Shown here: in pieces, positions 22,999 through 44,858 of the stretch | How the letters are laid out: each line of letters starts with the position of its first letter | How positions within the stretch are numbered: position 1 is the stretch's first letter | NCBI GenBank assembly: GCA_018303885.1 | Contig: JAGVXG010000004.1 | Coordinates: 1 to 57,036 of the forward strand | Reading direction: 5' to 3' | Origin: Candidatus Pacearchaeota archaeon | GTDB taxonomy: Archaea > Nanobdellota > Nanobdellia > Pacearchaeales > GW2011-AR1 | Length of the DNA stretch: 57,036 bases | The notes under the pieces: model-generated | What the model was told of the DNA's origin: nothing | Seen by the model: only the letters and a program-made list of their open reading frames with translations | The model's database searches: none | Made by a program: the position numbers and the translations under genes

Positions 22999-24066
22999 AT
23001 GAAAATTATGGTGACTGGTGGCTGTGGTTTTATTGGAAGCAATTTCATAAAATATCTTCTCACTGATCCAGAGGTTACTGAAGAAATTAAAATTCTTAAT
23101 GTGGATAGTATAACTTATGCAGGACAGGGCAGAAACATAGAACATATGTATAAAGAAAGCAAGAACCAAAAATTTTTAACTAATTATAAGTTTATTCGCG
23201 TCGATATTTGTGATTTTCATTCTATTGATATCATTATAAAAAAATTTAGTCCTGATTGTATTGTTAATTTCGCCGCAGAATCTCATAATAGCTATGCTAT
23301 TTTAAATCCTACAGTTTTCTTTAAGACAAATTTATTAGGGACTCAGAATTTGCTAGAAGCGGCAAGAAAGAATAATGTCGGGAGATTTCATCATATATCA
23401 ACATGCGAGGTTTATGGAGATTTGGATCTGAAAAGCAAAAAGAAATTTACTGAAACTACTTCATATAAACCAAACACCCCATATAATGCATCTAAGGCTG
23501 CCGCAGATTTAGCTGTAAGAGCTTATTTTAAAACATTTAATCTCCCAATAACTATCTCAAACTGTTCGAACAATTATGGGTCATACCAATTTCCTGAAAA
23601 ATTAATCCCCCTTTTTGTAACTAACTTACTAGAAAATAAAAAAATTCCACTATATAAAAATAGCCAAAATAAAAGAGAATGGATTCATGTCTTAGACCAT
23701 TGCAAAGCCATATACAAAATCTTGAAAAATGGCAAGGTAGGAGAAACATACAATGTTGGAACAGGCGTTGAAAAAAGCATAGAAGAAATTACCACAATAA
23801 TCCTTAAATATCTTAATATGCCCGAGACTATGAAAGAGTATGTGCCAGATAGACCAAGTCACGATAGAAGGTATTTACTTGATTCAAAAAAAATAATGAA
23901 AGAGCTGAAATGGAAACCCGCGATTAACTTTGAAACAGGAATGAAAGAAACAATTGAATGGTATAAAAATAACAAAATTTGGTGGTTGTCTTTGAAAGAA
24001 AAAACCTTAATCCAAGAAAATAAATGGGGTGTCAAACGAGACAAAAATCAGAATGAAAGTAAATAG
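22999..24066 (+). CDS. rfbB: dTDP-glucose 4,6-dehydratase-like (RmlB family)
   Basis: TGGCGFIGS, NFAAESH, PYNASKAA, SNNYG.YQFPEKLIP, DRPSHDRRY; the TDE motif reads TCE. Confidence 0.88.
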   Translation: MKIMVTGGCGFIGSNFIKYLLTDPEVTEEIKILNVDSITYAGQGRNIEHMYKESKNQKFLTNYKFIRVDICDFHSIDIIIKKFSPDCIVNFAAESHNSYAILNPTVFFKTNLLGTQNLLEAARKNNVGRFHHISTCEVYGDLDLKSKKKFTETTSYKPNTPYNASKAAADLAVRAYFKTFNLPITISNCSNNYGSYQFPEKLIPLFVTNLLENKKIPLYKNSQNKREWIHVLDHCKAIYKILKNGKVGETYNVGTGVEKSIEEITTIILKYLNMPETMKEYVPDRPSHDRRYLLDSKKIMKELKWKPAINFETGMKETIEWYKNNKIWWLSLKEKTLIQENKWGVKRDKNQNESK

Positions 24067-24156
24067 AAAATTTTCAATCATTCGCCGTAGGAGGTATGTC
24101 AAATGAGACAAAAATCAGAGATTTTAGCTCATTCGTCTCCAGGAGGAGCCAAATGA
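24052..24156 (+). repeat. Two tandem 50-bp ATGA-flanked units, each a 17-codon mini-ORF (MKVNRKFSIIRRRRYVK*, MRQKSEILAHSSPGGAK*)
   Basis: ATGs at 24053, 24103 and 24153; each TGA overlaps the next ATG; both units carry TCATTCG, AGGAGG and CAAATGA. Confidence 0.85.
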
Positions 24157-25052
24157 AAGGGATAATTTTAGCAGGGGGAACAGGAAGTAGGCTATATCCA
24201 TGCACAAAAGTTACAAACAAACATCTTCTTCCAGTTTACAATAAGCCAATGATTTATTACCCTTTAAAGACTCTTGTTGATGCAGGAATAAAAGAAATTC
24301 TAATCGTTTCTGGGAGCGGACATGCAGGACACTTTGTCAACCTTCTTGGCTCTGGTAAAGAATTCGGCGTTAGATTAAGTTATGAAGTACAGGAAGAAGC
24401 AGGAGGAATTGCGCACGCTCTTGCCCTTGCCGAAAGTTTCATTGATAACGATGATATGGTATTAATTCTTGGAGATAATATATTCGAGGACAACATAAAA
24501 AACTATGTTGATGAATTTAAGGCACAAGGGGGTGGAGCCAGAATCTTTTTGAAAGAAGTTGGAATGAAAGCTGCGAAAAGATTCGGCATTGCTGTTGTGG
24601 AAGGCAACAAAGTCAAATATGTTGAGGAAAAACCAGAAAATCCAAAATCAAATCTTGCAATGACCGGCCTTTATATGTTCGATTCAAAAGTCTTTGATAT
24701 AATAAAAACGCTAAGCCCATCTACAAGAGGAGAACTTGAAATAACAGATGCTATAGAAAGATATGTTCGCTTTGGAAATTGTTATAATAGTTTAATAAAA
24801 GGTTATTGGTCTGATGCCGGGGCATTTGAATCATTAAACAGGGCAAGCAATCTTGTAAGAAAAAATGAAGCAACTGAAGAAGATCACTGGTCTGATACCG
24901 ATGATTTTACCGAAACATTTAAATTTCCATCTAAAGACGATGATACTAAAACAATTATTGAAAAACTGTCTCTGCTAGCAAAAAAACAGACAGAAGTTTT
25001 AGATTATCTTTCAAAAAAGCAGAATAAAAGTTTTTCTACTGGGTATTTTTAG
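24153..25052 (+). CDS. rfbA: Glucose-1-phosphate thymidylyltransferase (RmlA/SpsI-like) with C-terminal extension
   Basis: GIILAGGTGSRL, KHLLPVYNKPMI, LGDN, EEKP, RGELEITD, WSDAG; start set at ATG 24153 with an AGGAGG SD. Confidence 0.92.
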   Translation: MKGIILAGGTGSRLYPCTKVTNKHLLPVYNKPMIYYPLKTLVDAGIKEILIVSGSGHAGHFVNLLGSGKEFGVRLSYEVQEEAGGIAHALALAESFIDNDDMVLILGDNIFEDNIKNYVDEFKAQGGGARIFLKEVGMKAAKRFGIAVVEGNKVKYVEEKPENPKSNLAMTGLYMFDSKVFDIIKTLSPSTRGELEITDAIERYVRFGNCYNSLIKGYWSDAGAFESLNRASNLVRKNEATEEDHWSDTDDFTETFKFPSKDDDTKTIIEKLSLLAKKQTEVLDYLSKKQNKSFSTGYF

Positions 25053-42547: not shown

Positions 42548-42644
42548 GTTTTTTCTATCTTTTACTCATTTAAAAAGATTATGAAACTCTATTATGCATT
42601 TTTATTACAACAATCTTATTAAAGACGTTTTTTTCATTAGTCAG

Positions 42645-43694
42645 ATGGAATTGAACAGAAAAAGGGTTCTTATTACTGGCATAACAGGTTTTATCGGAGC
42701 AGAGTTAGCTCATAAACTATTGGAACAAGGTTATGAGGTTTTCGGTTTTATTCAGCCAGTTATCGGAAGAGACTTAAGCTGTTTAGAAGATATTAGAGAT
42801 AAAATAAAGCTTTTGATATGTGATATTAAAGATTACTTTTCTGTTAGAAACTCAATAAAAAAAATAGAACCAGATGTGGTTTTTCATTTGGCTGCTCTTT
42901 CTCCAGTTAGATTAAGTTTTGAGCATCCTTTTGAATATCAGGATTCTAATTTTGTTGGCACAGTTAATATAGCAGAATCTCTAAGAGAACTCTATGGACC
43001 AGATAAAGTAAGACTTATTGCGGCATCAACAGCAGAAGTTTATGGAATCCAAGAAAAAAACGAGCCTTTCGTTGAAGCTTTAAGATTGGAGCCTTCAAGT
43101 CCCTATGCAGTTTCAAAAGCTTCTTTGGATATGTATCTTAGAATGATTCATACTGTCTACAATTTTAACGTCGTGATATTAAGGAATTCCAATACCTTTG
43201 GAAGAAAATATGATCCAAGCTTTTTTACAGAGTATCTCATAACAGAGATGCTTAATGGAAAAGATATCTATATTGGAGCACCGGATTCAATCAGGGATTA
43301 CATGTATGTCGATGACCATGTAAGTTCTTATTTGCTTGCAATGAAAACTCCTGAAGCAAGAGGGCAGGTATTCAACATTGCTGGAGGCAAAGGTTATACA
43401 AATAAAGAGTGGACATTAAAAATTGCAGAAATTTTAGGTTTTCCTTTGGGAAAAATCCATTTTGGGCAATATCCTCCTAATTATCCAAATAGGCCACTTC
43501 CTTCAGACCAACCATATCTTGTTCTTGATTCTACAAGAGCTAGGACAGTGCTTGGATGGTCGCAAAAAATCCCTCCAGAGGAAGGATTGAGAAAAACTGC
43601 AGAATATTGGAGAAATAAGTATCTTAAAGAACAGAAAATAGGCATCTCTGAGCAAAAATTAGATAAAATCAAAGAAATTATTGATTCTGAATAA
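42645..43694 (+). CDS. NDP-sugar 4,6-dehydratase/reductase (GMD/RMD-like extended SDR)
   Basis: TGITGFIG, FHLAALS, ASTAEVYG, PSSPYAVSK, RDYMYV; start at ATG 42645. Confidence 0.88.
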   Translation: MELNRKRVLITGITGFIGAELAHKLLEQGYEVFGFIQPVIGRDLSCLEDIRDKIKLLICDIKDYFSVRNSIKKIEPDVVFHLAALSPVRLSFEHPFEYQDSNFVGTVNIAESLRELYGPDKVRLIAASTAEVYGIQEKNEPFVEALRLEPSSPYAVSKASLDMYLRMIHTVYNFNVVILRNSNTFGRKYDPSFFTEYLITEMLNGKDIYIGAPDSIRDYMYVDDHVSSYLLAMKTPEARGQVFNIAGGKGYTNKEWTLKIAEILGFPLGKIHFGQYPPNYPNRPLPSDQPYLVLDSTRARTVLGWSQKIPPEEGLRKTAEYWRNKYLKEQKIGISEQKLDKIKEIIDSE

Positions 43695-43703
43695 AATAAT
43701 AAA

Positions 43704-43758
43704 AATGAAAGCAAATAGGAAATTTTCATTCATTCGCCATAAGAGGTATGTCAAATGA
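43704..43758 (+). repeat. Dispersed copy of the 50-bp unit (mini-ORF MKANRKFSFIRHKRYVK*)
   Basis: 50/55 identical to 24052-24106; its TGA overlaps the ATG at 43755. Confidence 0.88.
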
Positions 43759-44858
43759 AAGTAGCAATGGTTTTTCCAACAAGAGAATCCGAGAAAGCTA
43801 TTTCAGGATACGCAACGACTCTTGTTGAAAACATAAAAAAAACAAAAGTTGATATAGAAAATTTCACTTATGTTTCCGGACATCCAAAAACTCTTTTTAA
43901 TCGACTAAAAGCGTTAAAAAAATATGAAGTTATTCATATACAACATGAATATAATCTTTTAGGAAATTATGGGTTGCCATTCTTTCTTTTATATTTTTTG
44001 CTTTTCTTTTCCGAAGCTAAGATAATAACAACGATGCACACCATTCTTTCTCAAAAAGAAAGGTTTCCTGGCAGTAGCCGCCTAAAAACTTCCCTTAGAA
44101 AAATACTTTATTTGATACAAAACCGCTGGATAAATTGGTTTTCAGATATAATCGTTGTGCATACTAGTTTCTTAAAGGAAACGCTATCCAAAGAGTACCA
44201 TGTTAAAAAAAATAAAATAGTCGTTTTTCCTCAAGGGATTATTGAAAATGCACCACAATACAACAAAAAAAAGATAAAAAAAGAACTAAAGCTCTTCGGC
44301 AATGTCTATCTTTTTATGGGAAGCATGGTCCCAGACCATGGACATGATATAATTATAAGACAAGCAGATAAAATAGGCAAGACAATTCTTGTTGTAGCAA
44401 ATTCCGGTTCAGTTAATGATAGGAACAGTGATAGAACAAGAACGTATTTAGAAGAAAACAGGAAAATTGTCCAACAGAAAGGTTTTGAGAAATTTGTAAG
44501 ATTTGATATAAGCGAAAGCATAACAGATAAAAATCCCCTTTGGTGGAAATATTTTTCTGCAGCAGACTTAATTCTTTTGTCATATAGGGTAGGACATGGA
44601 AGCGGGATATTTGCGCATGCTATGGCTGCAAAAAGACCGGTAATTGGAAGTAATGTGCCCTTCTTTAATGAAATCTCAAAAAACTATGGATGTGTTTTTA
44701 TTGCAAAAAACGATCAAGATTACCCAAAAGTAATTAAGGAAGCAATGAAACCTAAAAACCATAATAAAATGACTAAAGAATGCGAACGATATCTTAAAGA
44801 ATACGGACTTTCAAGCCTTGCACTTAAATATAAAAAACTTTATTATTCTTTAAAATGA
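43755..44858 (+). CDS. GT4-family glycosyltransferase
   Basis: IHIQHEY, TTMH, ADLILLSY...GSG...AMA..RPVI.S. Confidence 0.85.
   Translation: MKVAMVFPTRESEKAISGYATTLVENIKKTKVDIENFTYVSGHPKTLFNRLKALKKYEVIHIQHEYNLLGNYGLPFFLLYFLLFFSEAKIITTMHTILSQKERFPGSSRLKTSLRKILYLIQNRWINWFSDIIVVHTSFLKETLSKEYHVKKNKIVVFPQGIIENAPQYNKKKIKKELKLFGNVYLFMGSMVPDHGHDIIIRQADKIGKTILVVANSGSVNDRNSDRTRTYLEENRKIVQQKGFEKFVRFDISESITDKNPLWWKYFSAADLILLSYRVGHGSGIFAHAMAAKRPVIGSNVPFFNEISKNYGCVFIAKNDQDYPKVIKEAMKPKNHNKMTKECERYLKEYGLSSLALKYKKLYYSLK

Follow-up and report, generated by a model that had tools for sequence, protein, structure and literature searches.

A start-codon-associated, frame-maintained repeat family in a Pacearchaeota genus and its probable working as a translational relay

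As far as they are described in PMC12548453, MIRUs (mycobacterial interspersed repetitive units; Supply et al. 1997) are inserted at start codons with a -4 coupling to the gene, an arrangement thought to minimise the effect on expression. The same source takes from Sun et al. (2021) the engineered bicistronic design (BCD), in which a leader mini-open reading frame (mini-ORF) holds an internal Shine-Dalgarno sequence (SD) and places its stop codon over the gene start, and from Huber et al. (2019, 2023) that termination-reinitiation at NTGA overlaps works in archaea and bacteria. The present study concerns a family of repeat units, mostly 50 nt long, represented in 57,036 nt of DNA from Candidatus Pacearchaeota archaeon (assembly GCA_018303885.1, contig JAGVXG010000004.1, positions 1 to 57,036 of the forward strand), a stretch referred to here in its whole length as the window. 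It is one contig (C15) of a 720-kb, 34% G+C, 17-contig metagenome-assembled genome (MAG), G000, which belongs to a tiny groundwater archaeon, is 85% complete and encodes archaeal ribosomal proteins. The units of the window are members of a genus-restricted dispersed repeat family copied onto gene start codons, always in the orientation of the gene.

MIRUs and the units are alike in being short (~40-100 bp), dispersed, sometimes tandem and apparently mobile, in their gene-oriented position at start codons and in having a small internal ORF tied to the following gene by -4 (ATGA) spacing; MIRUs are often tied in this way to the preceding gene as well, a point on which the units give a mixed picture. 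New relative to MIRUs are the archaeal domain, the units being AT-rich and found in one genus-level DPANN clade, the takeover of promoter-proximal starts that are probably leaderless, and a hairpin that covaries, differs in strength between the strands and keeps the SD in the loop and the gene AUG in the stem; the likeness claimed is one of working principle only. Mycobacterial repeats are high in G+C, and homology with 34% G+C archaeal units is not expected. With the BCD the units share a leader ORF with an SD inside and its stop on the start, by which the ribosome is meant to unfold structure and reach the start; unlike it they are natural, repeated and evidently copied around the genome. 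With ordinary NTGA coupling they share the -4 overlap, which every typical copy shows at its 3' end and 13 of the 37 copies with an upstream gene show at their 5' end, but here the upstream "gene" is a repeat-borne mini-ORF without a conserved product. REP/BIME, ERIC, Correia/NEMIS and the Rickettsia palindromic elements, the last with in-frame insertion, are small non-autonomous hairpin repeats tolerated in transcription units; to our knowledge they are not placed on start codons and carry no in-phase relay ORF. A full-text literature search of incomplete coverage returned no account of such elements in archaea or DPANN, and the family would apparently be an undescribed archaeal counterpart of MIRUs.

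Three units lie on the plus strand of the window. Unit 1 (24053-24106, type 1; 71 bits with the covariance model (CM) R1) and unit 2 (24103-24156, type 2; from the sequence and R1) stand in tandem before an rfbA-like gene. The ATGs at 24053-55, 24103-05 and 24153-55 are spaced by exactly 50 nt; the first opens the 17-codon mini-ORF MKVNRKFSIIRRRRYVK, whose TGA overlaps the ATG of the second, and the second opens the likewise 17-codon MRQKSEILAHSSPGGAK, whose TGA overlaps the rfbA ATG. Unit 3 (43705-43758, type 1; from the sequence, blastn and R1) has the 17-codon mini-ORF MKANRKFSFIRHKRYVK, an SD-like AAGAGG at 43741-43746 and the hairpin at 43730-43758. Positions 43704-43758 are identical to 24052-24106 at 50 of 55 nt (blastn against the whole genome, E = 3e-14). 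This geometry, and the 50/55 copy before a GT4 gene, had been noted in an earlier reading made from the letters of the window without database searches (the sequence-only reading), and both hold, the gene assignment by Pfam. The motifs that this reading saw shared between units 1 and 2 are real; they are read in different frames, as F-S-I-I-R in unit 1 and I-L-A-H-S in unit 2. A scan of positions 23000-25000 with the covariance models of Rfam 15 (E <= 10) gave no relevant match.

Searches with blastn-short, nhmmer and R1 recovered 14 full units over 9 contigs of G000. All 14 are gene-oriented and open, their ATGA end falling on the start of the next unit or of a gene, and their ATG-to-ATG spacings (47, 50, 56 or 77 nt) are without exception 2 mod 3, the period expected by the sequence-only reading. 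Such regularity lies well outside what chance would give. Outside the window the downstream genes, named from their N-terminal translations, are those for L14 (C11:37104), S14 (tandem units C11:39205 and 39255, with L5 upstream), S8e (C14:10023, 47-nt spacing), L35Ae (C6:59551), S7 (C1:39364, 77-nt spacing), the PolD large subunit (C5:81194, 77-nt spacing, the TGA of the upstream gene overlapping the unit ATG), apgM (C5:21735), a secreted protein (C7:22372) and a 60-aa ORF (tandem units C17:7157 and 7107). Thus three tandem doublets are present in G000, those on C11 and C17 and the one in the window. Type-2 copies are those at 24103, C11:39205 and C6:59551, together with the apgM unit of the congener G002. 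The copies C7:22372 and C17:7157 are identical at 53 of 54 positions at unrelated loci, which argues for recent copying. Local duplication or an assembly chimera, either of which could have produced the match between 24052 and 43704, is ruled out by the copies on 9 contigs and in 21 other genomes: R1 found 1-8 copies each in 21 of 36 sampled congeneric genomes, and none in 24 genomes taken from eight further families within the order. Public metagenomes, scanned for an exact pattern, gave at least 118 contigs with the unit pattern; to judge by the record names, many of these belong to groundwater assemblies. Across the family the units measure 45-114 nt, mostly 50 nt, and their mini-ORFs 14-37 codons.

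Some copies depart from the common form. Two long units of 81 nt (C5:81114-81194 and C1:39284-39364) contain an in-phase extra hairpin, CGCGAA-CAGGAAA-TTCGCG, adding 27/30 nt, and the congener G023 has a 114-nt form (L054); these nested additions leave the frame intact. At C6:20643-20669 and C6:1197-1228 (minus strand) of G000, two small genes have on their very starts partial units, TCATTCG...CCAAATGA, that lack the 5' half; the protein of one of these genes ends in ...GMVGGC. A weak CM match (E = 0.007) at C3:16885-16930 on the minus strand falls at the 3' end of a 363-aa ORF, whose C-terminal coding segment (...EQFLNM.GIGAILRFEI) is tandemly duplicated, and it is probably not a true unit. 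In a viral collection the sole match to the core pattern was on a giant-virus MAG contig of IMG/VR (L223:284-325); it shows neither the ATGAAAGCAAAT 5' half nor a gene-start context, and is likely a chance match or a relic.

The units keep an open frame. A set of 63 distinct open ATG...ATGA units was collected from G000, from congeners and from one related locus. The distinct 54-nt copies are open in 30 of 30 cases, as against 65% of column-resampled pseudo-units, and no 54-nt match was left out for an internal stop. The metagenomes were scanned with a frame-blind pattern, TTTTCATTCATTCG-N(8-30)-CAAATGA, in which the phase is unconstrained and a unit counts as in phase when offset plus gap is 0 mod 3. 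Of the resulting units with a recognisable upstream ATG motif, 45 of 50 were in phase and open (binomial p = 1e-16), and 19 of 23 length classes were in phase (p = 1.7e-6), six of them with compensating out-of-phase indels in the two halves; both p-values are to be read as upper bounds on significance. Even the apgM relics of the congeners G029 and G008 (spacings 32 and 41 nt), in which the core is lost, are still open from the ATG placed 21 nt after the TATA box to the ATGA. Owing to this spread of length classes, the maintenance of the frame is robust despite shared ancestry.

The peptide, on the other hand, is not conserved. Positional entropy over codons 2-11 is 0.61 at third positions, compared with 0.70 at first and 0.77 at second positions, so that variation shows no third-position excess; and in type 2 units a +1/-1 indel pair causes the invariant core ATTTT..TCATTCG to be read in a frame other than that of type 1. 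The frame scan and the codon-position entropy thus agree with the proposal of the sequence-only reading that length, frame and DNA/RNA motifs are kept rather than peptide.

The position of the units was analysed from the upstream side. For 37 copies a co-oriented upstream ORF is present, and its stop overlaps the unit ATG in 13, lies 1-10 nt before it in another 13 and falls inside the unit in two (as with rfbB); in the remaining nine, among them three second units of tandems, the stop is at least 16 nt away. Most of the copies without overlap have the stop within 13 nt. Another 24 copies lack an upstream gene altogether. Since only 13 of 37 stops overlap and 24 copies are without an upstream gene, the target is the gene start codon, ATG followed by A, and not the stop/start overlap as such. 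The earlier proposal of targeting to ATGA overlaps therefore stands for the ATGA end, which does sit on the gene start, and finds no support in that form for the upstream stop, which in the rfbB gene is 11 nt inside unit 1. By a crude count ~46% of the long ORFs of G000 start with ATGA. Before genes starting with ATGG (MEE...) the unit carries its own stop 5 nt ahead of the gene ATG, and in most of these copies its 5' end duplicates the ATGGAAGAA of the gene; likewise the unit before S14 begins with ATGACAGCAA, like S14 itself. This likeness between unit and gene start, which does not hold for all copies, hints at a start duplication or at homology-guided copying. Long target-site duplications were sought, and only AAATGA was found regularly repeated, the ATGACAGCAA and ATGGAAGAA matches occurring in some lineages only; the units are also without terminal inverted repeats. 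In our reading, many of the promoter-proximal copies without an upstream gene would sit at leaderless starts.

Tiny ORFs chained by ATGA were seen next to several units: ATGCCTAAATGA (M-P-K-stop) at C17:7158-7169 on the minus strand, before the C17 doublet; ATGAGGAATGAAAAATGA before the apgM unit of G010 (L199); and in G006 a 9-codon ORF ending in ATGA before the apgM unit.

Comparison of the same junctions in relatives, an approach already suggested by the sequence-only reading, gave empty and filled states at apgM, S17-L14 and rfbB-rfbA. The apgM gene is present in 41 of 41 genus genomes. Where the site is empty, a conserved TATA box, AAATTTTTATAAA, is followed after 21 nt by ATGAAAGG without an SD; in ~10 filled genomes the same TATA box and 21 nt lead to the unit ATG, the apgM ATG following at a distance of one unit. 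Between the empty site of G023 and the site of G002, which holds a type-2 unit, the difference is exactly 50 nt; the flanks are near-identical and only AAATGA is repeated. Archaeal TATA boxes usually lie ~26-27 nt upstream of the transcript start, and because the TATA box is 21 nt from the ATG, the apgM mRNA of the empty genomes would be leaderless. At the S17-L14 junction the S17 stop lies 0-5 nt before the L14 ATG in ~20 of the 30 genus loci read, several with TAA-A-ATGAAAGC; a unit is present in at least five of the 30, the subtypes differing, and in three the S17 TGA overlaps the unit ATG. No rfbA orthologue was found among 40 sampled congeners, the single match being distant (39% identity), and the nearest homologous loci from other MAGs were used instead. 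In three of them (L073, L077 and L083) the rfbB TGA directly overlaps the rfbA ATG/GTG; in a fourth, a Pacearchaeota MAG (L076), the junction holds one 50-nt family unit with ATGA at both ends. From these junctions it follows that the unit duplicates the start and that its ATG replaces the old gene start. That the unit is a tiny mobile repeat, as had been suggested, agrees with the 14 copies in the genome, their varying presence at orthologous sites and the 53/54-identical copies on different contigs.

The strongly conserved apgM promoter, (A)ACATAAATTTTTATAAA, is in most genomes (L183-L212) separated from the apgM ATG by exactly 21 nt, and this distance offers a useful promoter-spacing yardstick for the clade.

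The second conserved property is a hairpin at the 3' end of the unit. In the family form, TCATT pairs with AATGA (the gene start plus flanks); further in come, in order, C.A (a conserved mismatch), G:C, Y.Y (again a mismatch) and three or four variable pairs that close a loop with AGGAG in it. The inner three pairs, counted from the anchors and independently of any alignment, occur as CG/AT/TA, AT/TA/GC and TA/CG/AT; they are 76-87% paired, compared with 0-62% when the partner is slid by 1-3 nt. In the CM alignment, which was itself fitted to structure, the pairing is 94.5% as against 76.9% after shuffling, with 100 double-sided changes versus 27, and none of 500 shuffles reached as high; the metagenome sample repeats the result with 84-96% paired. 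Compensatory changes thus back the TCATTCG...CAAATGA hairpin, in whose loop the SD lies. In unit 1 it spans 24078-24106 (TCATTCG...GTCAAATGA), with the SD AGGAGG (24089-24094) in or at the loop and the AUG of the next ORF in the basal stem; the minimum-energy fold of this unit at 37 C is another structure (z -0.5), and the hairpin rests there on anchor-based pair counts and family covariation. In unit 2 the hairpin is TCATTCG-TCTCC-AGGA-GGAGC-CAAATGA (24129-24156; from fold and covariation), with the SD at 24141-24148 within it. The 16S 3' end, sought for comparison with the anti-SD, was not found in the incomplete G000 MAG with the pattern used.

The sequence-only reading had assigned to the unit the supply of an SD, and this is indeed carried within it. 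The same reading allowed TCATT to pair with either flanking AATGA; the downstream hairpin shows compensatory changes, and the upstream pairing shows none. The alternative upstream helix (AATGA/TTTTCATT) carries only one-sided, breaking changes and is broken in at least 11 copies, and conservation by codons is absent; the leader-peptide switch that had been offered as a function finds no support.

That these units form a start-codon-associated, frame-maintained repeat family is, the relay left aside, highly probable. A further step is to regard them, by analogy with MIRUs, as a mobile cassette tolerated because it would work as a translational relay, and this we consider probable. Insertion would duplicate the start (AAATGA), and the unit ATG would take the place of the old start and inherit its initiation signal, either as a 5'-terminal leaderless AUG 21 nt past the TATA box or through reinitiation after the stop of the upstream gene. 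The ribosome would then read the mini-ORF of 14-37 codons, melting the hairpin whose basal stem contains the gene AUG and whose loop contains the SD, stop at the UGA overlapping the gene AUG (-4 spacing) and reinitiate there, aided by the SD of the unit. Insertion would thereby be nearly neutral for expression, so that units could persist and build tandem arrays even inside ribosomal-protein operons. Translation of the mini-ORF, reinitiation and the near-neutrality of insertion are what we infer from the arrangement. The relay predicts that the frame is kept over many length classes and in relics; none of the other readings, as promoter, operator or peptide gene, does so.

Such a relay would extend the MIRU principle, a repeat surviving on start codons with the help of the ribosome, from mycobacteria to archaea with extremely reduced genomes, where units invade even the genes of ribosomal proteins, RNA polymerase and DNA polymerase. 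An apparently leaderless gene would be turned in a single step into an SD-led, coupled one, and the synthetic bicistronic design would have in the unit its counterpart from nature, tested by evolution. The natural length and stem variants are a ready mutant series for the study of archaeal termination-reinitiation and of start-site hairpins.

Several observations weigh against the tolerated relay. The hairpin in mRNA sense is weak (mean -5.8 kcal/mol), and the antisense hairpin is the stabler in 53 of 55 units (mean -9.45 versus -5.81 kcal/mol; Wilcoxon p = 2e-10), so that the hairpin may serve copying at the DNA level rather than translation. The frame p-values ignore shared ancestry and thus overstate independence. 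Recurrence before the same housekeeping genes (apgM, S14, L14, rpoB) could mean a selected function and not mere tolerance. Finally, the search for a mobilising enzyme gave no Y1 (PF01797) transposase in the 85%-complete G000.

In a first alternative the unit is a beneficial, selected translation-initiation cassette, a natural bicistronic design whose leader translation would unfold 5' structure, whose SD would boost highly expressed genes and whose spread would be adaptive. The architecture fits the engineered BCD, with its short leader ORF, internal second SD and stop over start (PMC12548453). Most of the genes that follow a unit are housekeeping genes with high expression (S14, L14, L18, S4, S7, S8e, L35Ae, rpoB, PolD and apgM), the unit is retained before apgM in ~10 congeners, and there it supplies an SD to an otherwise SD-less, apparently leaderless gene. 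However, most congeners are unit-free at the same genes, the L14 unit occurring in only ~7 of 39 and 15 of 36 genomes having no unit at all; empty S17-L14 junctions often already possess an SD in the coding end of S17; tandem doublets bring no obvious added benefit; and copies are also found before accessory sugar genes and small unknown ORFs. A selected cassette is on this balance unlikely.

The strand asymmetry bears on a second alternative. In unit 2 the plus strand folds with -9.0 kcal/mol (z -1.35) and the minus strand with -13.8 (z -3.8); in unit 3 the values are -5.1 (z -1.6) and -8.9 kcal/mol (z -4.2). The greater strength of the antisense hairpin arises mainly because the conserved C.A mismatch becomes U.G there, and among the variable pairs A.C outnumbers G.U by 14 to 5. 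Two readings are open to this asymmetry: either the mRNA helix is deliberately kept weak, or the structure of the bottom strand is the one that acts, for instance as single-stranded DNA during copying. On the second, the hairpin would be built for the bottom strand and the unit would be a miniature single-strand-DNA mobile element with the target TCAT (coding ATGA), multiplied by start-codon-specific transposition or template switch. We hold such a model to be doubtful; were it true, the relay ORF would be the means by which the element survives in a 0.7-Mb genome with almost no spare DNA.

With regard to mobility, the PF01797 Y1 transposase is present in 15 of 41 congeners without correlation with the presence of units (Fisher p = 0.31). 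As it is missing from G000, follows no such pattern in the genus and belongs to insertion sequences with unrelated ends, an IS200-type Y1 transposase was rejected as mobiliser. A REP/RAYT or IS200/IS605-dependent palindromic element was likewise set aside, neither a cognate Y1 transposase nor an IS-end-like hairpin having been found. The relatives G028 and G017 (L213:693-1359, L214, L215 and L220) do contain several IS200-like elements of ~0.65 kb with the Y1 transposase only; their left boundary is always preceded by, or starts with, TTCATTAC, often TTTTCATTAC, and the 8-mer TTTTCATT is common to them and the unit core. Their hairpins are GC-rich and otherwise unlike that of the unit.

A dispersed cis-operator is a further alternative, in which a single trans-acting factor, a protein or a small RNA, would bind the invariant core (ATTTTCATTCATTCG) together with the hairpin and co-regulate all carrier genes in translation or transcription, the mini-ORF being a mere tolerance feature. 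The invariant TCATTCG and the mismatches fixed at stem positions (C.A and Y.Y) would suit specific recognition better than generic stability, the structure is strand-asymmetric, and components of the translation and replication apparatus are enriched among the genes concerned. Yet no candidate factor is known, the absence of units from 15 of 36 congeners and all sampled sister families would make the regulon very young and dispensable, and the set of unit-bearing genes varies between genomes, so that an operator appears improbable. A portable archaeal promoter, with the A/T-rich core as TATA box and a leaderless or short-leader transcript beginning at the downstream ATG, finds some encouragement in the core ATTTTCAT, which in the 50-nt form ends ~25 nt before the gene ATG, near the 21-nt spacing of the apgM TATA box. 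It was rejected, however, for its core-to-ATG distance, which changes greatly between units of different length (45-114 nt), whereas the frame and the hairpin stay; moreover the core is unlike the apgM TATA box, and the open frame, the ATGA ends and the phase rule would all go unexplained, which leaves this reading very little probability. A small basic functional peptide, or a regulatory leader or arrest peptide, to which the ever-open ORFs, the recurrent N-terminal motif MKANxRFSFIR and the mostly conservative or synonymous differences between two long copies might point, was rejected from the codon-position entropy and the frame change by which type 2 reads the same conserved nucleotides as an unrelated peptide, and, given also a C-terminal half that varies freely and covaries as a stem and a length range of 14-37 codons, is hardly credible.

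The genes around the units of the window probably retain traces of how the tandem was built. Upstream lies an rfbB-like dTDP-glucose 4,6-dehydratase gene (22999-24066, plus strand; from the ORF list and the Pfam GDP_Man_Dehyd/Epimerase matches), which ends with a TAG at 24064-66. Its homologues end near ...WW.PLKK or ...ENKWNGKK. A 23-nt direct repeat, 22/23 identical in a blastn self-match, brackets the 44-nt core of unit 1. Its left copy, TGTCAAACGAGACAAAAATCAGA (24030-24052, plus strand; delimited also by the sequence and the rfbB frame), reads TGTCAAACGAGAC... in the rfbB frame (GGT GTC AAA CGA); its right copy (24097-24119, plus strand) reads TGTCAAATGAGAC..., in which unit 1 ends and unit 2 begins. 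The CGA at 24037-39, which matches the TGA of the right copy, is probably the ancestral rfbB stop: with T for C, rfbB would end in ...ENKWGVK at a TGA overlapping the ATG of unit 2, in the same arrangement as in L076 and at a length near that of the L075 homologue (...ENKWNGKK and stop). Probably rfbB thus formerly ended in a TGA overlapping the unit 2 ATG, as it does in that related genome, and because the restored end fits both relatives, unit 2 was probably there first and unit 1 came later, with 23 nt being duplicated in the event. Exactly this duplication would result from a template switch that returned at the 9-nt microhomology GTCAAATGA, and a later change of TGA to CGA would have lengthened rfbB by 9 codons, up to the TAG supplied by unit 1. 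The last 10 rfbB codons (24037-24066, RDKNQNESK and stop) are read from repeat DNA, first from the beginning of a type-2 unit and next, in a different frame, from unit 1, and this tail is without counterpart in the homologues.

Downstream of unit 2 is the rfbA-like glucose-1-phosphate thymidylyltransferase gene (24153-25052, plus strand; Pfam NTP_transferase), whose homologues in other genomes start with MKG(I/V)ILAGG and align from residue 1. Unit 3 is preceded by an SDR-type sugar 4,6-dehydratase gene (42594-43694, plus strand; Pfam and ORF list), with its TAA 10 nt 5' of the unit ATG at 43705, and followed by the GT4-family glycosyltransferase gene (43755-44858, plus strand; Pfam and ORF list), the ATG of which overlaps the unit TGA. 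An ATG at 24096, in the rfbA frame and 1 nt past the SD, is open across unit 2, so that the listed ORF comprises 318 aa (24096-25052); the true rfbA start is 24153, the in-frame ATG 24096 probably not being used, and gene callers could add a false 19-aa N-terminal extension to rfbA. More generally, annotation may absorb units as N-terminal extensions, as here, or as C-terminal tails, as in rfbB, or call them as 17-aa genes.

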